A DNA stretch of 64,000 nucleotides, from contig JAYSRF010000108.1 of the NCBI GenBank assembly GCA_043721195.1, positions 21,341 to 85,340 on the forward strand, read 5' to 3'. Source of the stretch: Fluviicola sp. (GTDB lineage Bacteria; Bacteroidota; Bacteroidia; Flavobacteriales_D; Crocinitomicaceae). The notes beneath the pieces were generated by a model that made no database searches, had not been told where the DNA came from, and was given only the letters and a program-made list of their open reading frames with translations. Shown piece after piece: positions 2,839-18,734 of this stretch (within the stretch, counting starts at the first letter, position 1; every line of letters begins with the position of its first letter). Both the position numbers and the translations under genes were made by a program.

Positions 2839-5205
2839 ATGAAAGGACTGCTTTTTCTTCTTTCATCCTTAATTGCTGGATTCGCAACTAGCCAAGAAAT
2901 GCGGATTCTGGAATCAGAGGTCGACCGACAGCACGTTGATCGGTACAATGAACGAGCTGCGAAAATCAACCACAAAGACAGCGCGGTTTATTATTACACC
3001 AAATCACAACTCATTGCTGATAAGATCAGTTATTGGCAAGGTGAGATTGTTGCGTGTAAAGGCTTAATCAATTGTTACAAAAACGATCGCACGATCTATG
3101 ATAAATTGCGCTATTCATTGATGCTCGTAAACCTTTACGATCAACATGGAACAACCGATCAAAAAGTGCAAGGATACAATCAATTGGGGAAATTGTATTT
3201 AACTGAACACCTGTATTCCAAATCGGTAGAACAATATAAAAAAGCGATTGCACAAGAAGAAAATCCAAAAAACGCCTCTTTTGAAACCCAAATGGGCTTG
3301 ATTCGTGCGCAAAAGCATTCCAATGATCTAGATGGTGCACTCGTTTCTGCGCGGCAATTGGAATACAAAAATGGATTAACGAATCCTGAAAAAGTTGATC
3401 TGCAGAAAGAGAAAGCGGAGATTTACCACGCACTAAAAGCTTATAAAGAAGAATTAACAAGTTATGAGTTAATTATTTCATTGGTGAAAAATGGATCACA
3501 ATCCTACTTAGAACCAACAATTTGGAACAACATCGGCTATACCAATAAATACTTAAATAATTATCCTGAGGCAAAATCAGCCTTCCTCCAAGCGGTGCGC
3601 AAAGGAAGTAAAAACGATGATGAACTAAATGGAGCAGCTTACCACAATTTGGGTTTAATCTTGTACAACGAGCGCGACATGGATTCTGCTCTTTACTGTT
3701 TTGAAAAAGCAAAAGGACATTACATTGCCATCAATAATTTTGAGCAAGCAACACAATGCCTCAACATGGAAGCAATGACGTATTATCAATCCAATGATGC
3801 GTTCAATGCACAGAAGAAAATCAACTTAGCAATTCAACAAGCGAAAACACACCAATTGCCAGCTGTTTTGTCAAGAAGTTATGAAATCAAATCACTGATT
3901 CATCAAGATTTATACGAATTTGAAATGGCGTTGGAAAGTTATAAATCGTTTCTTTCTATTCGTGATTCCTTGTTAACAGAAGATCGTGTGCGTGAAAATA
4001 AATTGTTATTTGACCAGTATAAAATTGAGCAAATTGAAAAAGAATTGCGCTTGATCTGGGCGAAGAATGAACTCGATGTGCTCAATCTAGCGCGCGAAAA
4101 AGCCGAAAAAGAAGCAGAACGAGAACGGTTCAAAACAAAGGAAAAAGAAGACGAATTGCGCATTTCTGGTTTGCAATACAAGGAATTAAAAGCCCGTGAA
4201 GAATTGCAACGATTGATGTTGTTAGAAGAGCGATTAAACGTTGAAAACAAGGAAAAACAATTGGCCTTGAGTGAACGTGAAAATCAACTCAAGGAATTAG
4301 CATTGGAAAAAGAGCGATTAGTGATTGCCGCAAATGAAGAAAAAATTCGCTCTCTCGCTCAGAAAAACGAACTAGAACAACAAAAACGGCTCAATCAAGA
4401 AGCAGGATATACCTACAAATTGCGCTTGATTTTTGGAGCCATGTTGTTCATTTTCTTGATTTTATTGGTCATACTTTTTGCTTATCGACAACTGCGTAAA
4501 CGCAAAAAACAAATCGAACGCCAAAGCATCATCATTGCCAAAAGCAAAGAAGAAATTGAACATGAAAAAGAGAAATCAGAAGGTTTATTGCTCAATATCT
4601 TACCCCATGCGATTGCTGAAGAGTTAAAATTAACGGGCTCATCCAAACCGAAGTTATACAAAGAAGTAAGTGTTGGATTTACAGATTTCTCTGGTTTCAC
4701 GATGATTTCCGAGCAAATGAGTCCTGAATTGTTGGTTGAAAAACTCGATGCCATCTTTTTCGAGTTCGATCACATCGTAGAACGCCATGGTTTACAACGC
4801 ATCAAAACCATTGGAGATGCTTATATGTTTGCCGCAGGTGTTCCAGAGTTAATGGATAATCATGCGATCCACATTGTAGAAGCCGCTTTAGAAATGCGTG
4901 ATTACATTCAATCGTATAACAACCAATTAAATGTGGACGAGCCTAAATGGAATATCCGTATTGGCGTAAATACGGGACCAATTGTAGCTGGCGTAATTGG
5001 AATCAAGAAGTTTGCGTATGACATTTGGGGTGATGCTGTAAACATCGCTGCCCGTATGGAATCGAGTGGAGAAATTGCCAAAGTCAATATTTCAGGAAGC
5101 ACATTTGACCTTGTACAAAACCATTTCAATACCGATTATAGAGGAAAAGTTGCTGCCAAAAACAAAGGAGCGGTAGATATGTATTTTGTGGAGCGGAAAG
5201 GGTGA
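2839..5205 (+). CDS. Membrane-anchored TPR-sensor class III adenylate cyclase
   Basis: Signal peptide, TPR-like repeats (YNQLGKLY, WNNIGY, YHNLGLI), charged coiled coil, one TM helix, then cyclase motifs FTDFSGFT, IKTIGDAYM, YDIWGDAVNIAARMES (Lys/Asp pair indicates ATP specificity). Confidence 0.92.
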   Translation: MKGLLFLLSSLIAGFATSQEMRILESEVDRQHVDRYNERAAKINHKDSAVYYYTKSQLIADKISYWQGEIVACKGLINCYKNDRTIYDKLRYSLMLVNLYDQHGTTDQKVQGYNQLGKLYLTEHLYSKSVEQYKKAIAQEENPKNASFETQMGLIRAQKHSNDLDGALVSARQLEYKNGLTNPEKVDLQKEKAEIYHALKAYKEELTSYELIISLVKNGSQSYLEPTIWNNIGYTNKYLNNYPEAKSAFLQAVRKGSKNDDELNGAAYHNLGLILYNERDMDSALYCFEKAKGHYIAINNFEQATQCLNMEAMTYYQSNDAFNAQKKINLAIQQAKTHQLPAVLSRSYEIKSLIHQDLYEFEMALESYKSFLSIRDSLLTEDRVRENKLLFDQYKIEQIEKELRLIWAKNELDVLNLAREKAEKEAERERFKTKEKEDELRISGLQYKELKAREELQRLMLLEERLNVENKEKQLALSERENQLKELALEKERLVIAANEEKIRSLAQKNELEQQKRLNQEAGYTYKLRLIFGAMLFIFLILLVILFAYRQLRKRKKQIERQSIIIAKSKEEIEHEKEKSEGLLLNILPHAIAEELKLTGSSKPKLYKEVSVGFTDFSGFTMISEQMSPELLVEKLDAIFFEFDHIVERHGLQRIKTIGDAYMFAAGVPELMDNHAIHIVEAALEMRDYIQSYNNQLNVDEPKWNIRIGVNTGPIVAGVIGIKKFAYDIWGDAVNIAARMESSGEIAKVNISGSTFDLVQNHFNTDYRGKVAAKNKGAVDMYFVERKG

Positions 5206-5289
5206 GTTTGCTTTTAAAAGTTAGACACTTTTTTCTGTTTAAAATGAATTCTAAATTTAAAATCAAATTCAATCACGGGTATAGAATGC

Positions 5290-5297
5290 TATATTTG
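5290..5297 (+). promoter_or_regulatory. Bacteroidota -7 promoter element (TATATTTG)
   Basis: Exact TAnnTTTG match about 60 nt upstream of the ATG at 5358. Confidence 0.55.
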
Positions 5298-5357
5298 CCC
5301 CATCGCTTGAATCTACTCTAGAATGCGGGCGTTTGAAATTCTAACTGAACAACAATT

Positions 5358-6302
5358 ATGAAGTTTTTATTGACATTTATTGCGCTGATATCCATTCACG
5401 TAATCGCTGCACAAAAGGAAATTACGACAACAAAAACGGCAGATCATCTTCAGGTTCCTGGAACAAAGTTTTTTCTCATACCACCGCCAGATTTCACGAA
5501 TGCTTCAAATTTTCAAGGGTTTCAGCAAATGCATAGCGGATCATCTATAATGGTTATGGAGATTCCTGGTCCCTTCTCAGAAGCATCAACAGGATTCACA
5601 GCAGAAGGTCTTAAAACGAAAGGGGTCATTTTAAAGAAAAAAGAAGCCATAAAAATAAATGGATTTGATGGTGTGTTAATTCGAGCAGAGCAATTTGCGA
5701 ATGGAATAGATTATTTCAAATACATCCTTACATTCGGTAACGAACAAGCTTCTTACATGTTGATGGCAACATTTCCGCAAAAAGTAAAATCGCTGGAAAA
5801 AGAAATGCTGGAATCGCTTTATTCAGTTGTTTATGAAGCTGAGTTAACTGTGGATCCGTTAAGTGCAATTTCATTTTCGATTGATACAGAAGGAACCAAA
5901 CTTCAATTTGCCAAAAGTATATCAGGAATGCTTTCCTATACGGTAGATGGGAAATTGCCAACAGAATCAGATGATAAGACGAATTTTATTGTTGGAATAT
6001 CCTATGCATCAGTTCAATCGATCGACAAAAAATTAACAGCATTAAATAGGGTCAAACAACTTCCTTACAAAGACCTGAAAATTGCTGATAATGGTGTGTC
6101 AGAAATAGAAATCGATGGAATATCTGGTTATGAAATAGTTGCGGAAGGAACAAACTCGGTTACTGGAGCAAAAGATCTTGTTTATCAAGTAATGCTTTTC
6201 ACAGATAATGGTTATTACATGTTAGTCGGAATTGCAAAAGCCGATTTTGAAACAAACTTGGTTATGTTTAAGAAAATTGCTAAAACGTTTGAAAGAAAAT
6301 AA
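5358..6302 (+). CDS. Exported hypothetical protein, possibly two PsbP/DcrB-like domains
   Basis: Signal peptide; two halves with similar patterns (AIKINGFDGVLI / EIEIDGISGYEI; SYMLMATF / YYMLVGIA); fold is inference. Confidence 0.6.
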   Translation: MKFLLTFIALISIHVIAAQKEITTTKTADHLQVPGTKFFLIPPPDFTNASNFQGFQQMHSGSSIMVMEIPGPFSEASTGFTAEGLKTKGVILKKKEAIKINGFDGVLIRAEQFANGIDYFKYILTFGNEQASYMLMATFPQKVKSLEKEMLESLYSVVYEAELTVDPLSAISFSIDTEGTKLQFAKSISGMLSYTVDGKLPTESDDKTNFIVGISYASVQSIDKKLTALNRVKQLPYKDLKIADNGVSEIEIDGISGYEIVAEGTNSVTGAKDLVYQVMLFTDNGYYMLVGIAKADFETNLVMFKKIAKTFERK

Positions 6303-6363
6303 TTGTAATACATTACAATATCCTGATAATTGTCCCGTTTAGATTGTTCAACTAATTACAAAT

Positions 6364-7104
6364 ATGACCTATTTACGCAAACATCTTATCCTCCTCTTAT
6401 TTTCGTTCCCTCTGCTTGTTAATGCCCAAGAAAAGCAATCAATTAATAAAATAGGAATCAATTATTCAGTTGATTATTGCTACAGAAAATTAGCAATTAG
6501 TGATCCACTCTACCAACAAGGAATTGTTTGGCTCAACGAACTTGAAAATCCAACTATTGGTTTGAATACAGGAGCAACGTTTCAACATTCCTTTAAAAAT
6601 GGACTTTTAGTAGAAGGTGGACTTCAATATGTTCGTTTTGGTGAAAAATCCGATTCCATTTCAATAACTACGGTTGATGCTGATGTGGCTGGGTTTGGCG
6701 TTTATCGCAATAAGTATGATTATATAGGTATTCCAATTAAAATTGGGTATCAGTTTCCATTGGGCAATCGCATTCACTTAAGCGTAAGTACTGGCATATC
6801 AACGAATTTTTTTATGGCTCGACAGTATAGTTTTCATTACAAGTACTTTGATGGTTCTTCTGGTGTACATCGGGAAACCACTCAAGTAGGAATGTTTGGT
6901 ACCCAGTACAATCAAGTAAATCTTGTAAGTATATCCAGTATTGGCATAGAAATTCAATTGTTTAAAGCATTTTCCGTGCGTTTTGAACCTACTTTCCGGT
7001 ATTCAATGAATCCAATAATAGGTGATCAGATTCAGGTAAGACCTTATTCAGCTGGGATCAACACTACTGTTTTTTACCGTTTTGGAATGAACAAAACCAA
7101 TTAA
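6364..7104 (+). CDS. Outer membrane beta-barrel (porin-family/OMP) protein
   Basis: Signal peptide ending VNAQ; alternating amphipathic strands (YIGIPIKIGYQF, FSVRFEPTFRYS, SAGINTTVFYRF). Confidence 0.75.
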   Translation: MTYLRKHLILLLFSFPLLVNAQEKQSINKIGINYSVDYCYRKLAISDPLYQQGIVWLNELENPTIGLNTGATFQHSFKNGLLVEGGLQYVRFGEKSDSISITTVDADVAGFGVYRNKYDYIGIPIKIGYQFPLGNRIHLSVSTGISTNFFMARQYSFHYKYFDGSSGVHRETTQVGMFGTQYNQVNLVSISSIGIEIQLFKAFSVRFEPTFRYSMNPIIGDQIQVRPYSAGINTTVFYRFGMNKTN

Positions 7105-7186
7105 AACAAGTTCGATTATAATTTGTGCAGAAAACCCTTAAATGTTTGTGTGGCACTAAAATTGACTAGACTTCATAAATTTTTAA

Positions 7187-7207
7187 GGCACTTATACCAT
7201 AAAGACA
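7187..7207 (+). repeat. Left terminal inverted repeat of the IS1595 element
   Basis: GGCACTTATACCATAAAGACA; matches reverse complement of 11279-11299 at 18/21. Confidence 0.9.
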
Positions 7208-7223
7208 GTTTAGCTTAGTCTGG

Positions 7224-7673
7224 TTAAATAAATCCATCATCAAATTCAAAATTGAAAACTCCTTTTTCAACCCAAATAGAGAGTTTGCCATTTAATATAA
7301 GGTCAAGCCCAATAATTATATCAAACTCGTTACTTGATTCGAACACACCAACGGTCAACTCGTATTGTGGTGTTTTATTTGGATCAACTTTCAGAAGCAT
7401 GGAGTAGTTTTTTACCTCAGTTGTAGAGTTTGGTAGTGAGAGGATGTAGAATCCTTTTTCTTCTAAAGCTAACATCTCTAAAGCTCTCGGTGAGATACAT
7501 GTAAAAGTAGCTCCTGTGTCCCAAAGAGCCTTTACCAGCATCTTCTTTGAAGTCTTTGGGTTTGATATTTCAACCGTCGTAAGTATTCCAGCGTTTTTTC
7601 TAAACTCTTTGAGTGATGTTGATATTTTCATAAGCCAATTTAAGGGCTTAATATACTGAAAACTAGATTTCAT
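7224..7673 (-). CDS. Retropepsin-like (clan AA) aspartic protease, IS passenger
   Basis: Catalytic ALWDTGATFTCIS motif and C-terminal DIIIGLDLI motif; 149 aa single domain. Confidence 0.8.
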   Translation of the reverse strand: MKSSFQYIKPLNWLMKISTSLKEFRKNAGILTTVEISNPKTSKKMLVKALWDTGATFTCISPRALEMLALEEKGFYILSLPNSTTEVKNYSMLLKVDPNKTPQYELTVGVFESSNEFDIIIGLDLILNGKLSIWVEKGVFNFEFDDGFI

Positions 7674-7715
7674 AATACTTTGTTTAAACTTACAAACAAC
7701 TAAAATTCACTGAGT

Positions 7716-7961
7716 ATGAGCATAAGAGATCAATTGATAGTGATTAAAAACAATGTTCATTCAGGGAATGACGTTGCAGGGTCAATGGACAAGTTAATCA
7801 ACCTTTTAAATATTGGCTATGATGATCCAAGAGAAAGAGAAGTAATAAAACAAATGGTTATTACAGCAAAGGATGATTTACTTAACGGTTATCCAATAAG
7901 TACATTTGATGATGCCTACCTAATCATTCTTAGTGATCTCAGTCATTCGGGTAAGATATAG
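7716..7961 (+). CDS. Small hypothetical protein, IS passenger
   Basis: 81-aa ATG ORF divergent from the protease; no motif. Confidence 0.5.
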   Translation: MSIRDQLIVIKNNVHSGNDVAGSMDKLINLLNIGYDDPREREVIKQMVITAKDDLLNGYPISTFDDAYLIILSDLSHSGKI

Positions 7962-8090
7962 ATTAAGCAGTTTAATTCTGACAAAAACTGCATTATCATT
8001 TTCTTCATTTAACCCTTTTTCACGGATTATCTTTTCTATCTGATCTAATACTAGGTTAGATTGATCTATACGTGCTGATATTTTCTCCAT
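7920..8090 (-). CDS. Small hypothetical protein (56 aa, not in ORF track), IS passenger
   Basis: Manual translation MEKISARIDQSNLVLDQIEKIIREKGLNEENDNAVFVRIKLLNLYLTRMTEITKND*; overlaps 3' end of 7716..7961. Confidence 0.35.
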   Translation of the reverse strand: MEKISARIDQSNLVLDQIEKIIREKGLNEENDNAVFVRIKLLNLYLTRMTEITKND

Positions 8091-8164
8091 CTTAAATTAA
8101 ATGTTAAATTGTTTTAAGTAAATGAATTTATTTTGTAATATTGTAAACGAATCAAAGGTATGTT

Positions 8165-8533
8165 ATGGATTATGTTCAAGGATTAAAGCTAAGGCGTGAC
8201 GAGTTACAAATTATTAAAGATGAACTCGAAGCTAAATTAAAACCTGTACTTAAAGAGTACGAAGCAATTGTAAACCTTCTTAAAGTTGTTGAAGCTGAAA
8301 ACTATGTTCAGAATGAATACCCTTTAAAAAGTAGTTTAAAAGAAAAAGTCTTATTCGCTGTTAGCGAGTTAAAGAAAGCAACAGCCCACCAAGTTATTGA
8401 TTTCATGCGCCAACATGAAAGCGATATTTCTGAATCCTCTGTTGTTGTAACCTGTTCAAAGCTATTTGGCTACGGAGTACTTCAAAAAGATAACAGCACA
8501 GGAAGAGAAAGTATTTATACTGTGAAGAAATAA
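8165..8533 (+). CDS. Coiled-coil plus winged-helix-like hypothetical protein, IS passenger
   Basis: N-terminal heptad pattern; C-terminal SLKEKVLFAVSELKKATAHQVIDFM...SKLFGYGVLQK...RESIYTV resembles a wHTH (inference). Confidence 0.6.
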   Translation: MDYVQGLKLRRDELQIIKDELEAKLKPVLKEYEAIVNLLKVVEAENYVQNEYPLKSSLKEKVLFAVSELKKATAHQVIDFMRQHESDISESSVVVTCSKLFGYGVLQKDNSTGRESIYTVKK

Positions 8534-8538
8534 CAAAA

Positions 8539-8564
8539 AATCCCCTTGCGCCAACAAAGGGATT
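8539..8564 (+). terminator. Stem-loop between the wHTH ORF and the transposase
   Basis: AATCCCCTTG-CGCCAA-CAAAGGGATT imperfect hairpin followed by CTCTTCACTTTTT. Confidence 0.5.
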
Positions 8565-8609
8565 CTCTTCACTTTTTTAACTCATAAATGAATCAAAATT
8601 GTAAATGTT

Positions 8610-9503
8610 ATGTCTTACAAATATACGATTTCCAACTTTAGAACTGACTTTCCAGACGATAACGCTTGTCTTGATAAGATATTTGATCTTCGCTATGGAT
8701 CACAAAATGAATGTCCTAAATGTAATAATAGCTTTTCTTATACTAGGGTAAAGAACAGACAATGTTACCAGTGTGGTAAGTGTTATAATCAAATTTATCC
8801 TTGCGCTAAGACAGTATTTGAGAACTCAAAAACTCCATTACTTTATTGGTTCTATGCAATCTACCTTTTCACAGCTTCAAAGAATGGGGTTTCTGCAAAA
8901 GAGATTGAACGTCAACTAGGAGTTACATATAAATGTGCTTGGCGAATGTTAAAACATATTAGAATTTTGATGGGTTCACAAAAAACTGCAATGTTTGGAG
9001 GTTCAATGGAATTAGATGAAACTTTTGTAGGTGGTAAGAACATAAACAGGCACAAAGATAAAAAGGTAGCAAAATCACAAGGACGCTCATTCAAAGATAA
9101 AACACCAGTGTTTGGAATGTTTGAACGTGAAACAGGACAAGTTAAAGCTTTTGTTGTTCCTGACACAAAAGGTAAAACGCTAAAACCAATTATTTACAGC
9201 CAAATTGAAACAGGTGCAAACGTTTTTACTGATGAATGGGTTGCTTATAAAGGTATAGACAAATACTATAACCATCAATTCGTAGACCACAGCAAAGGAC
9301 AGTACACAGACGGAGATAATTCAACCAACCGAATAGAAAACGTGTGGAGTTGTTTTAAACGGACAATAAAAGGAAGTTACATTAAGGTGTCACGTAAATA
9401 CTTACAGCTTTACGTAGATGAGTCTGTTTTCCGTTTCAACAACAGAAACAAACCTATTTTTTACGAACTGGTGAACCTTTTGGGTTTAGAATCAAATCAA
9501 TAG
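8610..9503 (+). CDS. IS1595-family (ISXO2-like) DDE transposase
   Basis: Zn ribbon CPKC...CYQCGKC, HTH GVSAKEIERQLGVTYKCAWRM, catalytic ELDETFVGG / FTDEW / TNRIENVWS, C-terminal VSRKYLQLYVDESVFRFNNR; frame intact. Confidence 0.95.
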   Translation: MSYKYTISNFRTDFPDDNACLDKIFDLRYGSQNECPKCNNSFSYTRVKNRQCYQCGKCYNQIYPCAKTVFENSKTPLLYWFYAIYLFTASKNGVSAKEIERQLGVTYKCAWRMLKHIRILMGSQKTAMFGGSMELDETFVGGKNINRHKDKKVAKSQGRSFKDKTPVFGMFERETGQVKAFVVPDTKGKTLKPIIYSQIETGANVFTDEWVAYKGIDKYYNHQFVDHSKGQYTDGDNSTNRIENVWSCFKRTIKGSYIKVSRKYLQLYVDESVFRFNNRNKPIFYELVNLLGLESNQ

Positions 9504-9609
9504 CTTTGTCAAAGTCTTTACTTGTGACAGGCTTAATTTGTTGTTTACGTTCTAGTTCCTCAAAGCCTTTCGTTAGTTCGTCTACTGACTTTATTTTAGG
9601 CTTTCTCAT
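9454..9609 (-). CDS. Small basic protein (51 aa, not in ORF track) overlapping the transposase 3' end
   Basis: Manual translation MRKPKIKSVDELTKGFEELERKQQIKPVTSKDFDKAIDLILNPKGSPVRKK*; starts 17 nt after the XRE stop, same strand. Confidence 0.55.
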   Translation of the reverse strand: MRKPKIKSVDELTKGFEELERKQQIKPVTSKDFDKAIDLILNPKGSPVRKK

Positions 9610-9626
9610 AGTACAAATGTATGGGA

Positions 9627-9944
9627 TTATTTTGATTTGTCCTTTTTCCAGTTTATTGGGGTTGGCATTCTGTTTTTCAAGTCGTCATTCATACTTCTTA
9701 AAGCTCTAAGATATAGCCTTTCTTCGTCATTCTCTAACAATAGGAACTCAACACTAGTTTCTAAAGCTTCACTGATCTTAAAAAGAGTTTTAATCGTTGG
9801 ATTAGTTCGCCCAGATTCAATCCTTCTTAGTGCAGAATCTTCTATACCAACTAAAGCAGCTAGTTCTATTTGTTTGACACCCTTTTGATTACGTATGGAC
9901 TGAATAGTTTTTCCAATTCTTTTTATGTATTCATCCTCGTTCAT
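9627..9944 (-). CDS. XRE-family (HTH_3) transcriptional regulator, IS passenger
   Basis: IGKTIQSIRNQKGVKQIELAALVGIEDSALRRIESGRTNPTIKTLFKISEAL. Confidence 0.9.
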   Translation of the reverse strand: MNEDEYIKRIGKTIQSIRNQKGVKQIELAALVGIEDSALRRIESGRTNPTIKTLFKISEALETSVEFLLLENDEERLYLRALRSMNDDLKNRMPTPINWKKDKSK

Positions 9945-10073
9945 TCAGTGAAGTTATTGCGAGAGGTAAATTATTTTCAGAACATTTATGATCGGTTTGT
10001 GTTTTTCTCTTATATTTACCCCTTAAACAAAAATTATGTCATGAAAAAACTAGTCTTATTCACTGCTATAAAT

Positions 10074-10238
10074 ATGAAAACTAGATTAATTATCGGATCA
10101 GTTATTCTAATCTCTTTATCTGCTTGCTCTAGTGGAACATCTGACTGTATTCAAGGTATGATGAATCAAGGCTACTCTTATGAAGAAGCAAAAGAAGGGT
10201 GTGAAGAAGCTCAAATAGAAGGACAACTACAAGATTGA
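10074..10238 (+). CDS. Small lipoprotein, IS passenger (alternative start 10041)
   Basis: MKTRLIIGSVILISLSAC lipobox; two further Cys in the mature part; track start 9870 overlaps XRE and is unlikely. Confidence 0.6.
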   Translation: MKTRLIIGSVILISLSACSSGTSDCIQGMMNQGYSYEEAKEGCEEAQIEGQLQD

Positions 10239-10789
10239 AGATTATGAAAACATCAATATTTGCAATTATGCTCACATTATGTTCTATTCTGCATGGACAA
10301 AATGATTACTATTTTGGATATCAAGAAGGTTTTAAGTATGGCTGTTCTTGTAATGATCTTCCACCTAAAAATGTTGCCTATGTTCAGGGAAATTGGGACT
10401 CTGGGTATTTGGATGGAAAGATAGACGGACTAAAATACGTTTCCTCGTCAACAAAACAAAGTACTCAATCACCACAAAAAACTACCACTCAACAACCACC
10501 TTTATACACGCCTGATTATGAACTAATAGAAAAAGTCTTAGCTGAAAAACAGCGAGTATATAACGAGCGTGTAGTTGATATACAAAATAGGATGAACCTT
10601 ATTTTTCAGCTTGTCACCCAAATTAGAGCTAAAAAGGGTAGTTTAACACAACCTCAATCTAACTATATATCCTCTTATAATACTCAGGTTAGCTTGTTTA
10701 GCGGTTGGGATTTTTCTGTTTACCAGAACTACTCCAACGTAGTAGAGTACCTAAATAAAATACAAGCTGAGATAATAACTTGGGCTTAA
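10235..10789 (+). CDS. Exported hypothetical protein, IS passenger
   Basis: Signal peptide (KTSIFAIMLTLCSILHGQ); GYQEGFKYG / GYLDGKIDG repeats; Ser/Thr/Gln linker; helical C-terminal domain. Confidence 0.7.
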   Translation: MKIMKTSIFAIMLTLCSILHGQNDYYFGYQEGFKYGCSCNDLPPKNVAYVQGNWDSGYLDGKIDGLKYVSSSTKQSTQSPQKTTTQQPPLYTPDYELIEKVLAEKQRVYNERVVDIQNRMNLIFQLVTQIRAKKGSLTQPQSNYISSYNTQVSLFSGWDFSVYQNYSNVVEYLNKIQAEIITWA

Positions 10790-10965
10790 ACTACTATATT
10801 CACAAACAAAAACCATTATGATAGTAAAAGCAATTCACTCTAAAAAAGAGATGAAAGTATATCACAATAATAACAAGTGTACTGAGAGAAATAATATTGA
10901 GAAAGAAAACATAGTACAAGGAGAGGGGGGATTGAAAATTTGTTCCAAGTGTAAAAAATTGAATT

Positions 10966-11244
10966 CTAATAAATAACAATTTCATTCACTGGGGTAAACC
11001 AGTTAGTGCCAATTATTTTTCCTGTGATACTATCATTGTTTTCCCAAACATCTTGTTTGTCATAAACACGTCTCACCTCAGAAACTTTTATTTTGTATAA
11101 AATGAATAACTCGTAAACTCTAATTAAATCGAATTCACTACCATAGAATTGAATAACAAGTTCCTCTAAACCAAGAACTGTTTGTTCATAATGTTGAATA
11201 TGTTTGAATCCGTGATTTTCTAGTATTTCTAAATATTTTTCCAT
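10966..11244 (-). CDS. Hypothetical protein, IS passenger
   Basis: 92-aa ATG ORF starting just inside the right TIR. Confidence 0.5.
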   Translation of the reverse strand: MEKYLEILENHGFKHIQHYEQTVLGLEELVIQFYGSEFDLIRVYELFILYKIKVSEVRRVYDKQDVWENNDSITGKIIGTNWFTPVNEIVIY

Positions 11245-11278
11245 CTAACTTTTGGTTTATTAAATCAATTTAAGCACA

Positions 11279-11299
11279 TGCTTTTAAGGTATAAGTGCC
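11279..11299 (-). repeat. Right terminal inverted repeat of the IS1595 element
   Basis: TGCTTTTAAGGTATAAGTGCC, immediately followed by the target duplication ATTTTTAA. Confidence 0.9.
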
Positions 11300-11315
11300 A
11301 TTTTTAAAAGTAAAC

Positions 11316-11774
11316 ATGAAAAAATTACTAGTAGTAGCTGGAATGTTCGCAGGTTTCACGTATGTTTCTTTGGCTCAAGTTCAAGAAAAGAAGGAAGAAA
11401 CTCCTAAAAAGGAAGTAGAACAAATAGAGAAAAAAAAAGGTGAGCACCACGGTGAAGGTGAACATAAAGAGCAAGGTGAAGAGAAAGAACATACTGGAAA
11501 GGGTGGTCAGAATGGATCAGGTGAACATACTGGAAAAGGTGAACATCATGGCGAAGGTGAGCATAAAGAGCACGGCGAAGAGAAAGAACATACGGAAAAA
11601 GGTGAACACCACGGTGAAGGCGAACATAAAGAGCAAGTAGAAAAGGAAAAAAAACTCGAGAAAGGAAAATCGAATCAGCCGTCAACTGAAAAAGGGAAGA
11701 GTGCTGAAAACAACCAAAAGGGTAAAACAGCAGCTGCCAAAAAAGGAACAAATAAGAAAAAGTCACGCAAATAA
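11316..11774 (+). CDS. Exported His/Glu/Gly-rich repeat protein
   Basis: Start ATG 11316 (MKKLLVVAG...SLAQ signal peptide); three KGEHHGEGEHKE repeats; Lys-rich tail; track GTG start lies in the IS TIR. Confidence 0.8.
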   Translation: MKKLLVVAGMFAGFTYVSLAQVQEKKEETPKKEVEQIEKKKGEHHGEGEHKEQGEEKEHTGKGGQNGSGEHTGKGEHHGEGEHKEHGEEKEHTEKGEHHGEGEHKEQVEKEKKLEKGKSNQPSTEKGKSAENNQKGKTAAAKKGTNKKKSRK

Positions 11775-11781
11775 TAAAAAT

Positions 11782-11944
11782 GGGGCTGTCTAAAAGGTAT
11801 CATCATTGAGTCAACCTTTGAGGTGGATTAAAAATTGATAAAATTCAAGGTGTTGAGGATGAGGTGTTTGGAGTTTACATAAGTAAATGACCAACGTCGA
11901 TTTCCGAAAATAACGCAGTAGTTTATTACTTTTTAAACACCTTC
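11782..11944. repeat. Imperfect palindromic intergenic element (REP/MITE-like)
   Basis: Arms GAGGTGGATTAAAAATTGATAAA (from 11820) and TTTATTACTTTTTAAACACCTTC (to 11944) are imperfectly complementary; central TTTAC-ATAA-GTAAA hairpin; preceded by GGGGCTGTCTAAAAGGT...ACCTTTG. Confidence 0.5.
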
Positions 11945-12024
11945 ATTTTACTTTTTCTAGGATTTACCCCATCAAAATCAACCTTTCCTAGCGAATCCGT
12001 CTGAAAATCTGCATTTTTGTCTCA

Positions 12025-13095
12025 ATGAAACAACAACGCGTAGCTTTAGTAGAATTTGCTGGTTCACATGACGAATGTTTACTCACCCAAATGGAGGCGC
12101 TTCATGCAGTTGGAGTAGAAATCATATTGGTTACCAATCAGCGTTTATTAGACCGCAACCCTGCCTGGAAAGCATATTTTAGAACTGTCTATTTTGTTGA
12201 ACCAACTGGAAAAGCCATTGGCGATTGGCGATTGATGCGACAATTGGTGCAATTTCTAAAGGAACAACAAGTTACCAAAGTCGTCTTTAATACCGCGCAA
12301 GGTGGACATATTCGCAACCTAGCGCTGTTAATGCCAAAACAAATCCAGTGCTACGGTATTATTCACACCATTCGCAAATTTCAAGGAAGTTTTACGCAGA
12401 AAATCATTCATCGAGCAATTAAAAAATACGTGGTGCTAAGTGACGATTTGTTGGAAAGAATTGTTCCACCAAAAGGAATCAACGTAGGAAGTTTTTATCC
12501 CATTTCATTTCCTCAAAGTACTTCCACCAGTGAAAAACCAGAGGGACAAATCTGGATTACCATTATAGGTGGTGTTGAAAATAGACGAAAGGATCTTCAT
12601 TCAGTTATTGATTTTATAACGAATACACCTCAACACATTCAGTTTGTTTTTCTGGGTAAAACAGATTTGCAACACCCAGATGCACAAGCATTTTTAGCAA
12701 CAATTGTTTTCGAAGGTTTAAGTGAACGAATTCGCTATTACACCGAATTTGTAGATCAAACAACATTTGATGGTGTTCTCAAGCAAACTGATTTTCTGTT
12801 GCCACTCATTCATCCTCATACACCAAGTGCCGATCAATACATCAATAATCAGATTTCAGGATCGTTTACCGTAGCGTTTGGTTATCATATTCCATTATTG
12901 ATTCATGAAGCCTATCAAACGGAGGAAGATCTTCGGGTCAGTGCACATTTTTATCAATTGAACACTTTTTCAAAACAATTGACCGCTGCAATCAGTGATC
13001 ATACTGCTCTTGTTCGTCGGATTGCCCAAGAAGAAAAATGGACAAAATCGTATCAATATGCCAATTACGTGTCTTTTTTGGATATTGGCTCGTAA
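12025..13095 (+). CDS. GT-B fold glycosyltransferase-like protein
   Basis: ITIIGGVENRRKD, QFVFLGK, DFLLPLIH...ISGSFTVAFGYHIPLL pattern resembles the nucleotide-sugar-binding domain. Confidence 0.6.
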   Translation: MKQQRVALVEFAGSHDECLLTQMEALHAVGVEIILVTNQRLLDRNPAWKAYFRTVYFVEPTGKAIGDWRLMRQLVQFLKEQQVTKVVFNTAQGGHIRNLALLMPKQIQCYGIIHTIRKFQGSFTQKIIHRAIKKYVVLSDDLLERIVPPKGINVGSFYPISFPQSTSTSEKPEGQIWITIIGGVENRRKDLHSVIDFITNTPQHIQFVFLGKTDLQHPDAQAFLATIVFEGLSERIRYYTEFVDQTTFDGVLKQTDFLLPLIHPHTPSADQYINNQISGSFTVAFGYHIPLLIHEAYQTEEDLRVSAHFYQLNTFSKQLTAAISDHTALVRRIAQEEKWTKSYQYANYVSFLDIGS

Positions 13096-13103
13096 TGCAT
13101 TCT

Positions 13104-13130
13104 GTAGGCTCGAAATGCATTCCGAGCCTA
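13104..13130. repeat. GTAG-type REP palindrome
   Basis: GTAGGCTCG-AAATGCATTC-CGAGCCTA between convergent genes; preceded by a partial copy GGCTCGTAATGCATTC. Confidence 0.8.
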
Positions 13131-14252
13131 TACAATAAACAAATCAGCCGCAATCGCGTCGGCCAATAAACGCCCTTCTTGTGTTAAGATTAAATGCGAA
13201 TCGGTTTCAATTAATTTACCCGAATTTTTCCATTGATCGAGTGATTGTTGCCAATTTTCAGGCAGTTGAAGACACCCCAATAATGCGTTTTTTGAAACAC
13301 CCCATTTTGTGCGCAGACCAATCAATATTAATTCATTGAAACGATCATTTGCAGATAAAGATTCAATGGTTTCAGGCAAATTTCCTTCTTCAATCGCTTT
13401 CATGTAGTGTTGATTATTCGCTACGTTCCAATAGCGATTGTTGCCATCAAAACCATGAGCAGAAGGACCAATTGCAACATATTTTTTACCAAACCAATAA
13501 GCTGTATTGTGTTGTGAATACTGTTCGTTTCGCGCAAAATTAGAAATTTCGTATTGCTCATAACCAGCTGTTGCAAGTGTGGTTACTAATAATTCAAACT
13601 GTTCTGATTGTTGATCAGCATTGGACGGATGAATAGCACCCGCCTTCACCCATTTTGCTAAAGGCGTTCGTTCTTCGATGGTTAAACAATACGCTGAAAT
13701 ATGATCGACATCCAAAGCGATTACCTGTTCTAATTGCAACAACCATTGTTGAGCAGATAAATCAGGTAAACCATACATTAAATCCACAGTCAAGGCGTTA
13801 AAGCCAACTTTTTTTGCGCGTTTTACGGCTTCTAAACCTTCGTTGGCAGAATGTGTACGGTTCATCCAACTCAACTGTCCGTCGGTAAATGATTGAATTC
13901 CAATGCTTAATCTGTTGACCCCAAGTGTTTTCCAACTTTCCAAATTCACTTCTGTGCAATCATCAGGATTACATTCCAGCGTTATCTCTTTTGAATGATC
14001 AGTAGTATAGTTGATTTCAACAGCCGCTAGCATTCTTTTTAACTCGTTTTTGGTCAATAAACTAGGAGTTCCACCACCAAAATAAATGGTTTCAACCGTT
14101 TCAGTTTGCCAATTGATTGCCCGTATTTCGATTTCTCGAATCAATGCAGCAATCATTCGTTCGCGATAGACCTCAAACGTTGTCGAAAAATGAAAATCGC
14201 AATACGAACATTGCTTCGCACAAAAAGGAATATGAATATAAATACCAGCCAT
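13128..14252 (-). CDS. hemW: Radical SAM heme chaperone HemW (HemN-like)
   Basis: GIYIHIPFCAKQCSYCDF (CxxxCxxC), YFGGGTPS, RLSIGIQSF, YEISNFA. Confidence 0.92.
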   Translation of the reverse strand: MAGIYIHIPFCAKQCSYCDFHFSTTFEVYRERMIAALIREIEIRAINWQTETVETIYFGGGTPSLLTKNELKRMLAAVEINYTTDHSKEITLECNPDDCTEVNLESWKTLGVNRLSIGIQSFTDGQLSWMNRTHSANEGLEAVKRAKKVGFNALTVDLMYGLPDLSAQQWLLQLEQVIALDVDHISAYCLTIEERTPLAKWVKAGAIHPSNADQQSEQFELLVTTLATAGYEQYEISNFARNEQYSQHNTAYWFGKKYVAIGPSAHGFDGNNRYWNVANNQHYMKAIEEGNLPETIESLSANDRFNELILIGLRTKWGVSKNALLGCLQLPENWQQSLDQWKNSGKLIETDSHLILTQEGRLLADAIAADLFIV

Positions 14253-15762: not shown

Positions 15763-16968
15763 TTATAGTTTCGACAAATCAGGCATTTCACGTGTAAATG
15801 CTGGAATACCTGTTACATCCATACCTGTAATCAACAAATGAATATCATGTGTTCCTTCATAGGTCAATACCGATTCTAAATTGGCCATGTGACGCATCAT
15901 CGAATATTCGCTGGTAATTCCCATTCCACCGTGAATTTGACGTGCTTCGCGAGCAATATCCAAGGCAATTTCCACATTATTGCGTTTAATCATAGAAATG
16001 TGAGAAGAAGTTGCTTTGCCTTCGTTACGTAATTGTCCTACACGTAAAGTAATGAACTGCGCTTTAGTGATTTCGGTAATCATGTCAGCTAATTTCTTTT
16101 GCGTCAATTGGAAAGCACCAATTGGAACACCAAATTGGGTGCGTTGCAAAGAATAACGCAGTGCTTGATCATAACAATCCATAGCTGCACCTAGCGCTCC
16201 CCAAGCAATTCCGAAACGAGCAGAATCTAGGCAACTTAAAGGTGCGCCCAAACCACTACGTCCAGGAAGTAAATTTTCTTTCGGAACTTTTACATTTACG
16301 AAAATCAATTCACCTGTTGCAGAAGCGCGTAAAGATAATTTTCCGTGCATTTCTGGAGTCGAGAATCCTTCCATGCCACGTTCCACGATCATTCCATGAA
16401 TACGACCAGTTTCGTCTTTTGCCCAAACAACAGCGATATCAGCAAATGGAGCATTTGAAATCCACATTTTGGCACCATTCAACAAGTAATGGTCACCCAT
16501 ATCTTTAAAATTACTTGTCATTCCACTTGGATTAGATCCATGATCAGGTTCTGTTAATCCAAAACAGCCCATCATTTCACCAGTTGCCAATTTGGGCAAG
16601 TATTTCATTTTTTGTTCTTCCGAACCATATTTCCAGATTGGATACATGACCAATGAACTTTGTACCGAAGCCGTTGAACGCAAACCAGAATCACAACGCT
16701 CCAATTCCTGCATAATCAAACCATAAGAAATCTGATCCAAACCTGGACCACCATATTCTTCAGGAATATAAGGACCAAATGCACCAATTTCACCCAATCC
16801 TTTTAACAAGTGCATTGGAAATGTTGCTTTTTCGTAATGTTCATCAATTATTGGAGAAACCTCCTTTTTCACCCACGCACGAGCAGTATCACGCACTAAT
16901 TTTTGTTCATCTGTGAGTAATTCATCCATGTTCAAGTAGTCTGGATGTGTGTATAAATCAGTTCTCAT
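15763..16968 (-). CDS. gcdH: Acyl-CoA dehydrogenase (glutaryl-CoA dehydrogenase-like)
   Basis: GCFGLTEPDHGSNP, LNGAKMWISNAP, ARQIHGGMGI, LTYEGTHDIH. Confidence 0.85.
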   Translation of the reverse strand: MRTDLYTHPDYLNMDELLTDEQKLVRDTARAWVKKEVSPIIDEHYEKATFPMHLLKGLGEIGAFGPYIPEEYGGPGLDQISYGLIMQELERCDSGLRSTASVQSSLVMYPIWKYGSEEQKMKYLPKLATGEMMGCFGLTEPDHGSNPSGMTSNFKDMGDHYLLNGAKMWISNAPFADIAVVWAKDETGRIHGMIVERGMEGFSTPEMHGKLSLRASATGELIFVNVKVPKENLLPGRSGLGAPLSCLDSARFGIAWGALGAAMDCYDQALRYSLQRTQFGVPIGAFQLTQKKLADMITEITKAQFITLRVGQLRNEGKATSSHISMIKRNNVEIALDIAREARQIHGGMGITSEYSMMRHMANLESVLTYEGTHDIHLLITGMDVTGIPAFTREMPDLSKL

Positions 16969-16995
16969 CAGTTATTTGTTTACAATTTAACAGTG

Positions 16996-17003
16996 CAAAG
17001 ATA
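16996..17003 (-). promoter_or_regulatory. -7 promoter element for the acyl-CoA dehydrogenase
   Basis: TATCTTTG on the minus strand, 28 nt upstream of the start. Confidence 0.65.
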
Positions 17004-17054
17004 GTCATAAAGGCGGAATCCATGAAAATTGAACTCATGTGATTAAAGAAACAC

Positions 17055-17062
17055 TAACTTTG
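17055..17062 (+). promoter_or_regulatory. -7 promoter element for the DUF4271/hemD genes
   Basis: TAACTTTG, divergent from the previous promoter. Confidence 0.65.
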
Positions 17063-17090
17063 TATTTGCTTTACGTACATATCTTCGTCC

Positions 17091-17798
17091 ATGTCAGCAT
17101 TTATGACTTTACAAAATGACTTGCCTGAGCACTTGATTCCTAGAACTACATCGGAATCGGTGCTGGTTTTGGTATTGTTTGTAGTTTGCATTTTGTTCAT
17201 TGCTATTGGTCGATACCGAGAAAAATACGTTTTTGTTTACCTCGCACAAGCAGTTTTTTTCTTAAAGCCATTAGAAGAATTGGCACGTGAGCAATACAAA
17301 GCCAGATCTGCTACCTCCCTTTTATTTATTCTCCAGTTTTTCTTAATATCAGCTGGTGCAGTATATTGGTTGTTTTTTCTACGGACACCGCTTAGTAATT
17401 GGAATCAATTGCTCGTACCCTTATTCGTTCCCGCCATTTATTTTATTTACCAATTTATAATCAGCAATCTAGCAGCTAGAATTACTGGTCAAGCTTCGGT
17501 GGTTTTAGAGTTAAATTACTTTACCTTAGTGTTAACTCAATTGTTTGGTTTATTATTTTTACTTGAATTCTTTGTAAGTTACTTTCAACCTGCTTTTGTC
17601 ACAAAGAGTACTTGGTTGCTGGCTTTCACCTACATTGCCTATCTCATCATTCGTTTTTTTCGCGGATTTTGGATAGTTCTCAATCAAGGCGTGCCTTGGT
17701 ATTACATTATTTTGTACTTTTGGACGCTTGAAATTCTGCCCTTACTGATCGTTGCGAAACTACTGTATTATGAAGAATTTCAAACTTGGATTGGTTGA
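17091..17798 (+). CDS. DUF4271-like membrane protein
   Basis: Multiple TM segments; C-terminal YIILYFWTLEILP; typical position upstream of hemD in Bacteroidota. Confidence 0.75.
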   Translation: MSAFMTLQNDLPEHLIPRTTSESVLVLVLFVVCILFIAIGRYREKYVFVYLAQAVFFLKPLEELAREQYKARSATSLLFILQFFLISAGAVYWLFFLRTPLSNWNQLLVPLFVPAIYFIYQFIISNLAARITGQASVVLELNYFTLVLTQLFGLLFLLEFFVSYFQPAFVTKSTWLLAFTYIAYLIIRFFRGFWIVLNQGVPWYYIILYFWTLEILPLLIVAKLLYYEEFQTWIG

Positions 17799-17828: not shown

Positions 17829-18578
17829 TTGAGCATCAAGACAATTTTGGTTTCTCAACCAAAACCTGAGGGAGAAAAATCGCCATATTACGATTTGGCG
17901 GATAAATATAAACTTAAAATCGATTTTAGACCGTTTATACAGGTTGAAGGGATCGCTGCGATTGACTTTCGTCAACAAAAAGTAAATATTCCAGACTATA
18001 CGGCTATCATTTTAACGTCAAAAACGGCAGTAGATCACTTTTTCCGCATTGCTGAAGAAATTCGCTTCGAAGTGCCTGATTCGATGAAGTACTTCTGTAT
18101 CTCGGAAGCAATTGCGCTTTATTTGCAGAAATATGTTACTTACCGAAAACGCAAAATATTTTTTGGTAAACAAACCATCGAAGATCTAGTCGATCCGATT
18201 AAAAAACACAAAGGCGAAAAGTTTTTGTTGCCGTGCACTGATATTTTGCGTGACAAAATTCCTGAAACACTTGAATTGGCTAAGATTCCATTTACAAAAG
18301 CAATGCTCTACCGAACGGTTGCTGCTGATTTAAGTGATTTGGAAGATGTTTATTACGATATGTTGGTGTTCTTTAGTCCTGGTGGAATTGAATCTTTATT
18401 GAAAAATTTCCCGGATTTTAAGCAAAATACAACTGTTATTGCGGCTTTTGGTCCAACAACAGCGAATGCGGTGATCAAAAACAACCTGCGTTTGGATATT
18501 CATGCTCCTCAACCGCAAGCACCAAGTATGACCGCTGCTATCGAACAATTTGTAAAAGAGTACAATAAAAAGAAATAA
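17829..18578 (+). CDS. hemD: Uroporphyrinogen-III synthase
   Basis: IKTILVSQPKP, IDFRPFIQVEG, ILTSKTAVDHFF, LVFFSPGGIESL. Confidence 0.9.
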   Translation: MSIKTILVSQPKPEGEKSPYYDLADKYKLKIDFRPFIQVEGIAAIDFRQQKVNIPDYTAIILTSKTAVDHFFRIAEEIRFEVPDSMKYFCISEAIALYLQKYVTYRKRKIFFGKQTIEDLVDPIKKHKGEKFLLPCTDILRDKIPETLELAKIPFTKAMLYRTVAADLSDLEDVYYDMLVFFSPGGIESLLKNFPDFKQNTTVIAAFGPTTANAVIKNNLRLDIHAPQPQAPSMTAAIEQFVKEYNKKK

Positions 18579-18594
18579 GCACTTCGGTGTTGAG

Positions 18595-18624
18595 AAAAGC
18601 GTCTTGTAACCCCAAGACGCTTTT
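18595..18624 (+). terminator. Intrinsic terminator after hemD
   Basis: AAAAGCGTCTTG-TAACCC-CAAGACGCTTTT perfect 12-bp stem. Confidence 0.85.
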
Positions 18625-18734
18625 GTCGTTTTATGCATCTTTGTAGTCTGTAATAATCGAATATACTTTTTTATATACTTCTTACAACAGAACTTAGATG
18701 GTTTCTCGTATTTTTACCACTCATAATTAGTGCT

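Follow-up and report, generated by a model that had tools for sequence, protein, structure and literature searches.

Positions 7187-11299 of the analysed stretch of Fluviicola sp. contig JAYSRF010000108.1 (64,000 nucleotides, hereafter the window) form a 4113-bp element in a Fluviicola host. We identify it, with high confidence, as a transporter insertion sequence (tIS) that is autonomous, belongs to the IS1595 family and has ends that look ISNwi1-like. tIS are insertion sequence (IS)-like elements with passenger genes, described for the IS1595 and IS66 families in the TnCentral preprint (10.1101/2021.05.26.445724) and in PMC3129680, which cites Siguier et al. 2009. In line with this definition, the element carries non-transposition genes inside its ends, and these genes are absent as one unit from an empty allele of the insertion site. 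Additionally, the marks of the IS1595 family are all present, namely a DDE_Tnp_IS1595 domain, a zinc ribbon, terminal inverted repeats and an 8-bp target duplication. The tIS assignment had been proposed in an earlier reading made from the DNA letters alone (the sequence-only reading), and it is now supported by transposase profiles, by the ends and the 8-bp duplication, and by the empty site that lacks the 4113 bp.

The left end of the element, 7187-7198, reads GGCACTTATACC, and the reverse complement of this 12-mer forms the right end, 11288-11299, with all 12 positions matching. When extended inward, the terminal inverted repeats agree at 16 of 17 and at 18 of 21 positions. Specifically, the left terminal inverted repeat (IRL, GGCACTTATACCATAAA, 17 nt, 94%) occupies 7187-7203 on the plus strand, where about 26 nt are conserved in the sibling elements described below, and it pairs with the right terminal inverted repeat (IRR) at 11283-11299 on the minus strand. 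Directly abutting the two ends are the two copies of a perfect 8-bp target-site duplication, ATTTTTAA, at 7179-7186 on the left and 11300-11307 on the right. Allowing up to one mismatch, the 12-mer occurs at two places in the 64-kb window, which are the two ends, against a chance expectation of 0.13 and with two or more matches in none of 100 shuffles; it is restricted to the same two places across the whole 5.17-Mb, 302-contig assembly. The G+C content of the element is 32.9%, as compared with about 37-39% beyond its flanks and about 34-35% in the left flank at 5.5-7.5 kb. No internal relic ends that would point to a composite origin lie inside the element, and an Rfam scan of it returns one sub-threshold chance match only. 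The inverted ends, the perfect duplication, an intact central transposase with cargo on either side and a composition richer in AT than the flanks had all been called in the sequence-only reading, and all of them hold.

The transposase gene, at 8610-9503 on the plus strand, encodes an intact IS1595-family DDE transposase of 297 aa. The protein matches PF12762 (DDE_Tnp_IS1595) at 2.3e-43 and 148 bits (cut-off 27), PF12760 (Zn_ribbon_IS1595) at 2e-8 and 34.5 bits (cut-off 25.4), and the NCBIfam model NF033547, "IS1595 family transposase", at 5e-60 and 203 bits (cut-off 75). The window's transposase is uninterrupted over its full length, and when it is aligned with six distant relatives and the transposases of four siblings (11 members), it retains all 47 invariant columns. 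These include the zinc cysteines C35, C38, C55 and C58 (CxxC...CxxC) as well as D136/E137, D208, N240/E243 and K250. K250 comes after E243, and the two may correspond to the DDEK-type motif of the ISNwi1 subgroup.

The sequence-only reading had further predicted that an unoccupied site, CTTCATAA-ATTTTTAA-AAGTAAAC-ATG, should exist in relatives, and precisely this sequence is found verbatim in a metagenome contig. A scan of metagenome contigs for the exact 27-mer CTTCATAAATTTTTAAAAGTAAACATG yields one match, located in the 1.25-Mb contig Ga0209512_1000001. This contig aligns with window positions 4798-7186 at 99.9% identity (2 mismatches in 2389) and with positions 11300-13930 at 98.7% identity, and the two flank alignments overlap in it by exactly 8 bp, which is a single ATTTTTAA. 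Because a near-identical population lacks all 4113 bp, the whole unit has moved in one piece; and because the empty site keeps one ATTTTTAA with nothing in between, while its flanks are almost unchanged, the unit has inserted recently, as had been suggested. The clean single repeat fits a site that was never occupied better than it fits an excision scar. In a joined-flank DNA search of 40 relatives (species-representative genomes) no empty site is found, since those genomes are too divergent. On the filled side, window positions 8470-11826 (3357 bp) recur at 100% identity in a Logan contig assembled from run SRR23617295, which thereby reproduces the right junction independently of the assembly. 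The insertion occupies an AT-rich site in a 90-bp spacer between an outer-membrane beta-barrel gene (6364-7104) and a gene for a His/Glu-rich secreted protein with a signal peptide and His/Glu repeats (11316-11774), 75 bp past the stop codon of the former and 8 bp upstream of the ATG of the latter. Since the element ends 8 bp before that start codon, it has probably severed the 11316-11774 gene from its own promoter.

Sibling elements with the same kind of ends occur at other loci. Whole-genome searches of other Fluviicola and other Crocinitomicaceae recover four full siblings, and metagenome contigs contain partial ones. Every full sibling has related ends and its own perfect 8-bp AT-rich duplication. 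The sibling in a Fluviicola metagenome-assembled genome (MAG; G013) spans 3679 bp (L018 2991-6669, duplication ATTATTTT); that in a complete single-contig genome (G171) spans 4224 bp (L106 7812-12035, TAAAATAA); that in an uncultured Fluviicola (G232) spans 5764 bp (L021 3333-9096, AAAACAAT); and that in another genus of the family (G146) spans 4724 bp (L108 7796-12519, AAACAAAA). The G232 copy splits a Type ISP restriction-modification gene on the minus strand into two parts, at L021 1383-3281 and 9066-12062, which encode Mrr nuclease, helicase, ISP coupler, Eco57I-type methylase and Type_ISP_C domains. In silico removal of this element together with one repeat restores a 1640-codon frame through the junction. 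An ENA contig (L128) shows the same left end and, from position 8086 onward, a core that is 98.7% identical to that of the window's element, followed outward by a different left arm and by a flank that is not present in the window's genome.

Several observations weigh against the tIS reading or narrow it. The element is single-copy in its own assembly, so that no intragenomic burst attests current activity, and when 401 sampled genomes of the family are searched with its winged helix-turn-helix (wHTH) marker gene, only 5 prove to contain the lineage, each with a single match. The left junction is known from the assembly alone. The ends, GGCACTTAT, appear to fit the ISNwi1-type consensus, GGnnnTTAT / ggnnatTAT. 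Most cargo open reading frames (ORFs) match no family, and the regulatory roles considered below for the wHTH protein, the XRE regulator and the small basic protein o51 are deduced from position and fold. The low copy number could also indicate that the element is a once-mobile tIS that has become fixed and no longer transposes. One copy per genome is the rule in all five genomes, and further copies, solo ends and derivatives resembling miniature inverted-repeat transposable elements (MITEs) are absent from the window's own genome. A fixed relic is, however, difficult to reconcile with perfect ends, a perfect duplication and a transposase in which every conserved residue is intact, with an empty allele in a population whose left flank differs at 2 of 2389 bases, or with a 98.7%-identical core at a different locus in another sample. 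We therefore regard a fixed, inactive element as unlikely.

An all-against-all comparison of the siblings brings out their internal organisation. What the siblings have in common is a wHTH gene (31-99% aa identity), the transposase (57-92%), a small basic ORF, an XRE-family gene (30-99%) and, at either tip, about 26-31 bp; outside this core and the tips, their arms are unrelated. Within the core, the wHTH and transposase genes lie on one strand and the small basic ORF (o51) and the XRE gene on the other. The wHTH gene, at 8165-8533 on the plus strand, encodes a protein of 122 aa in which, as indicated by Pfam, AlphaFold2 (AF2) and Foldseek, a long helix at the N terminus precedes a DNA-binding domain of the winged-helix type at the C terminus. 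Specifically, the protein is weakly Penicillinase_R-like (Pfam, 4e-4), its AF2 model (predicted local distance difference test score, pLDDT, 81) consists of a 43-residue N-terminal helix and the winged-helix domain, and its best Foldseek matches are the DNA-binding domains of Fur, MecI, BlaI and Hop2. Present in all siblings, the wHTH gene is followed by an IS1595 transposase gene in every readable contig, and it is missing from 78 more distant transposase loci. The family is rare: a word-indexed search of 5.8 billion proteins yields 9 clusters, and when 1.84 billion representatives are searched exhaustively with a profile, 97 clusters appear at E <= 1e-3, 12 of which reach E <= 1e-10. Sequence searches of the PDB with the wHTH protein, and with the protease and the secreted protein described below, return nothing significant. 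Between the wHTH and transposase genes lies a conserved hairpin (8535-8568), called terminator-like on the minus strand, in a spacer of which a 29-bp stretch is 93% conserved with G232. The XRE-family (HTH_3) regulator, 105 aa, is encoded at 9627-9944 on the minus strand, matches PF01381 at 2e-15 and is conserved in all siblings.

The core is bordered by two conserved divergent control regions, and the homology between siblings ends where the first gene of each arm begins. On the left, a 74-bp wHTH-proximal spacer at 8091-8164, for which we infer promoter function, separates the arm from the wHTH gene and is near-invariant in the window's element, L128, G013, G171 and L127; homology stops at 8088-8090, where the first left-arm gene has its start codon on the minus strand. 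On the right, the region between the XRE gene and the arm, 9945-10040, retains homology to about 10065, and the limit therefore falls within the first right-arm gene, after its ATG and about 22 nt of signal peptide (10041-10065). This first right-arm gene is a lipoprotein gene in every full sibling, and these lipoproteins are mutually unrelated. Because the 98.7%-identical core of L128 is joined to a different left arm, the replacement of this arm is recent. Cargo genes also recur from one sibling to another. Homologues of the 181-aa secreted protein of the window's right arm (48%, 41% and 27% identity) adjoin sibling XRE or transposase genes, and in L122 the gene that comes after such a homologue is in turn homologous to a G171 cargo gene, at 73% identity. 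Such recurrence in new combinations indicates a shared pool rather than random captures. Other sibling cargo includes several membrane proteins, a DUF2158 protein and a membrane protease of the CPBP/Rce1-like type. One way for the arms to be exchanged may be homologous recombination, with the core and the conserved tips as anchors.

Besides the transposase, ten ORFs are contained in the element, six of which are also called by an independent gene caller on the Logan contig that covers 8470-11826. The sequence-only reading had counted about eight passenger genes, but the wHTH, XRE and 51-aa ORFs belong to the conserved core of the lineage, which that reading had not recognised, and are not variable cargo. 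The left arm consists of a gene for a 149-aa retropepsin-like aspartic protease (7224-7673, minus strand), an 81-aa ORF (7716-7961, plus strand) and a 56-aa ORF (7920-8090, minus strand), the start codon of which, 8088-8090, is the inner limit of the arm; neither of the two smaller ORFs has a family match. The right arm, of which the 65-aa, 52-aa and 92-aa ORFs are among those found by the gene caller, begins with the lipoprotein gene (10041-10238, plus strand; 65 aa, lipobox LSAC), followed by the gene for the 181-aa secreted protein (10244-10789, plus strand), a 52-aa Cys-containing ORF (10818-10976, plus strand) and a 92-aa ORF without a family match (10966-11244, minus strand). The 181-aa protein combines an N-terminal module, QNDYYFGYQEGFKYGCSC...GYLDGKIDG, which is near-invariant among three homologues, with a linker and a three-helix C-terminal domain. 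In its AF2 model the C-terminal three-helix bundle reaches a pLDDT above 80 and the N-terminal half is poorly modelled; a search with the model returns no fold match for the C-terminal half. A 25-bp stretch, TATATTCACAAACAAAAACCATTAT, lies at 10795-10819 on the plus strand and, although the two cores are only 82% identical, is 100% identical at L018 6060-6084 in G013; in both elements it directly precedes ORFs that are unrelated to each other. A 22/25 copy of this stretch occurs elsewhere in the window's own genome, at about position 8292 of contig C136, after another XRE-like gene.

We take the cargo to consist of small proteins, envelope-directed and cytoplasmic, that are under selection; a role at the cell surface or envelope, or in conflict, is our best guess for its function. 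The sequence-only reading had offered, with a hedge, a choice between defence, toxin-antitoxin and phage-derived functions, which is not confirmed. In its defence version, the cargo would be an anti-phage module, with the protease as effector (candidate PDC-M08) and the XRE protein as its controller. The protease shows the hallmarks of clan AA in its translated ORF, with D52-T53-G54-A55 as the D-T/S-G-A motif and IIGLD as the C-terminal hydrophobic-hydrophobic-Gly motif. In favour of defence, it matches the PADLOC model PDC-M08B (PDLC04405) over nearly the full profile at 1.8e-6 and 26 bits, a weak match for which no curated threshold is given. Additionally, HTH models linked to defence, HTH_VI and capH among them, match the XRE protein, and an N6-methylase with a specificity subunit is carried by one distant tIS whose transposase belongs to the same clade. 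Against a defence module stands the lack of the PDC-M08A partner, as the other nine ORFs match no PDC-M08 model at E <= 0.1. The protease itself falls below the curated Pfam and NCBIfam thresholds (PF13650, 22.2 bits vs 24.3; PF13975, 20.6 vs 28.2; TIGR03698, 20.7 vs 57), with E-values of 2.4e-4 for Pfam Asp_protease_2 and 3.9e-4 for TIGR03698. Its sole close homologue (58%, P0002) has an unrelated context, and no element ends are found near it. Moreover, the protease arm is missing from the near-identical L128 and from all other siblings, the XRE matches are generic and the PDC candidates are themselves unvalidated, and the siblings, as seen in G232, insert into a defence gene rather than add one. 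A defence module of this kind is accordingly quite improbable. As for a phage origin of the cargo, neither the element nor the wHTH gene has a likeness in phage, plasmid or viral-contig collections, in which searches return short matches to the transposase core only, and this origin is rejected.

The toxin-antitoxin proposal would make the XRE protein and the 51-aa ORF an addiction pair that stabilises the element. Here, too, the XRE protein offers some encouragement, as it matches antitoxin-type HTH models (HipB, MqsA and HigA) with weak to moderate E-values, and in every sibling the two genes point the same way with 17 nt between them. The 51-aa protein, however, matches no toxin family and nothing in Pfam, PADLOC or PHROGs. 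Its gene, o51, lies at 9454-9609 on the minus strand, where it overlaps the last 50 nt of the transposase gene, and it is also called by the independent gene caller. The encoded peptide is lysine-rich with a (K/R)(E/D)DF..K.L motif and is conserved in all five elements, always convergent on the transposase 3' end with an overlap of 38-74 nt. An iterative profile search, run on a small candidate database so that its E-values are only indicative, covered 80 distant IS1595 (ISNwi1-like) loci (L020-L099) and finds o51-like ORFs at the same position in 23 of them. The relatives share a (K/R)(E/D)DF(L)K.L..A..P motif; they are lysine-rich, measure about 40-80 aa and come from several phyla (e.g. L048 6833-6991, L041 6851-6973 and L026 6821-6958). 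Because ORFs of this type converge on the transposase in many distant relatives that have no XRE gene, o51 is tied to the transposase and not to the XRE gene. Judged from these sequences, o51 looks like an old partner of the transposase clade rather than a toxin paired with the XRE protein, and o51-like ORFs may represent an unrecognised accessory protein of this clade. An addiction pair is thus very unlikely. Weakest of all is the notion that no single mobile unit exists, the element being an ordinary IS in a pre-existing islet or a chimera of MAG assembly, which could appeal to the 302-contig assembly and to a left-flank G+C near that of the element but is effectively refuted by the empty site, from which all 4113 bp are missing and in which the 8-bp repeat is present once, and by the independent Logan contig, which includes the right junction, with a sibling of the same architecture in a complete single-contig genome pointing the same way.

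Three siblings contain, in the spacer between the wHTH and transposase genes, an 86-87-nt class II tRNA gene that the window's element does not have. The anticodons differ, being UAA (Leu) in G232 (L021 5877-5963), GAA (Phe) in G146 (L108 8540-8625) and UAU (Ile) in L125 (2473-2559), and the Rfam tRNA model scores the first two at 44 and 38 bits, respectively. Compensatory changes affect 11 of 27 pairs among the three genes. All three share a GGAAG acceptor start, a G73 discriminator and a Ser-like D-loop, whereas the Leu tRNAs of the host itself all have A73 and a different D-loop. Over their 3' 27 nt, the sibling tRNAs match the tRNA-Ser(UGA) genes found in other genera of the family at 93-96% identity. 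Since seryl-tRNA synthetase does not read the anticodon (PMC6827378), the sibling tRNAs could be transposon-borne missense tRNAs; an unorthodox role in supplying tRNA for AT-rich codons is possible as well. The idea that the siblings use these codons privately for serine finds no support here: where the sibling transposases have the cognate codons, relatives have Leu, Phe, Ile or Val at the aligned positions and never Ser, so that the codons keep a hydrophobic meaning. These anticodon-altered serine-type tRNAs of sister elements lie outside the window's element, and they may be the most interesting lead to come from it.

Some further features of the host genome deserve mention. The secreted product of the downstream gene (11316-11774) has 152 aa, GEHHGEGEHKE-type His/Glu/Lys repeats and no Pfam match. 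Just past this gene, at 11769-11949, lies a non-coding repeat of about 180 bp, of which 33 full or partial copies (about 82-94% identical) are spread across the assembly, several of them at contig ends. The repeat is also present in genome G013 and has the look of a dispersed repeat of the repetitive extragenic palindromic (REP) or MITE type. A different IS1595 transposase is found at two contig ends, C267 (about 18091-18750) and C286 (about 16580-17239); the two copies are 95% identical to each other and about 45% identical to the transposase of the element, and they represent a multicopy IS that breaks the assembly. Matches resembling the terminal inverted repeat on contig C14 were dismissed as chance, as they fall within a repeated coding motif of a surface protein.

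Based on this organisation, a working model can be outlined. The transposase, which has a zinc ribbon and a DDE core, would bind the terminal inverted repeats, GGCACTTATACC(W)TAAA, and the whole 4113-bp unit was inserted into an AT-rich site of the spacer with duplication of ATTTTTAA. In the middle of the element lies a fixed core, composed of a control region, the wHTH gene, the hairpin and the transposase gene, with o51, the XRE gene and a second control region on the opposite strand, and two variable arms flank it, the first arm genes starting exactly where the core homology ends. As their position and fold suggest, the wHTH and XRE proteins may repress their own divergent promoters and hence the left and right cargo arms, respectively, and either the convergent XRE/o51 transcript or the o51 peptide may damp transposase expression. 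The cargo itself is drawn from a gene pool that sibling elements share and reshuffle. We tentatively propose, as a possible but doubtful extension of this model, that the lineage is a self-regulated two-armed gene-delivery platform with repressor-guarded promoters, exchanged arms and, in sister elements, tRNAs. If this were true, freshwater Bacteroidota would share a circulating pool of genes for conflict or surface functions, made up of arms that encode proteases, secreted proteins and envelope-targeted lipoproteins.

The element resembles ISNwi1-type tIS, whose catalogued sizes run to about 4.75 kb, in that a single DDE transposase with an N-terminal zinc ribbon is flanked by short repeats beginning GG...TAT, the target duplication is 8 bp and the passengers lie inside the ends; its own size is 4.1 kb. 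Distinct from these elements, its transposase is central with cargo on both sides, its fixed core includes the wHTH gene, the XRE gene and the 51-aa ORF together with two conserved divergent control regions, and its arms are swapped between near-identical cores. Among transposase relatives of 40-50% identity, which come from many phyla, at least 11 cargo elements of 1.7-6.6 kb have GGnnnnTAT(A/C)CC ends and perfect 8-bp repeats, for example L024 from Saccharibacteria (3.4 kb), L052 from Bacteroidetes (3.7 kb), L029 (6.6 kb) and L084 (2.8 kb). These ISNwi1-like elements share with the window's element the form of the ends, the 8-bp duplications, mostly orphan passengers and, in many of them, a small basic convergent ORF. 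In most of them, however, the left end is followed after about 60-100 bp by the start of the transposase, with one-sided cargo; none of them has the wHTH gene, and their inverted repeats are longer (21-25 of 25 positions match).

As a clean textbook case of a cargo-carrying IS, with filled and empty alleles both caught in nature, the element would suit a first test of whether an IS1595 tIS from Bacteroidota is active. The turnover of arms at fixed junctions beside conserved control regions, even between 98.7%-identical cores, makes the lineage a concrete system for how transporter ISs acquire and exchange passengers, and for which small envelope proteins they spread. By functional analogy only, it recalls integrons and other cassette platforms, in which promoters come from a conserved platform and small genes with no relation to one another replace each other at fixed junctions beside them; unlike integrons, it has neither an integrase nor attC-like sites, and the platform itself is a DDE transposon. 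Taken together, the kind of element is well known, and what is particular to this one is a three-gene accessory core, two promoter-anchored arms and a documented turnover of these arms.

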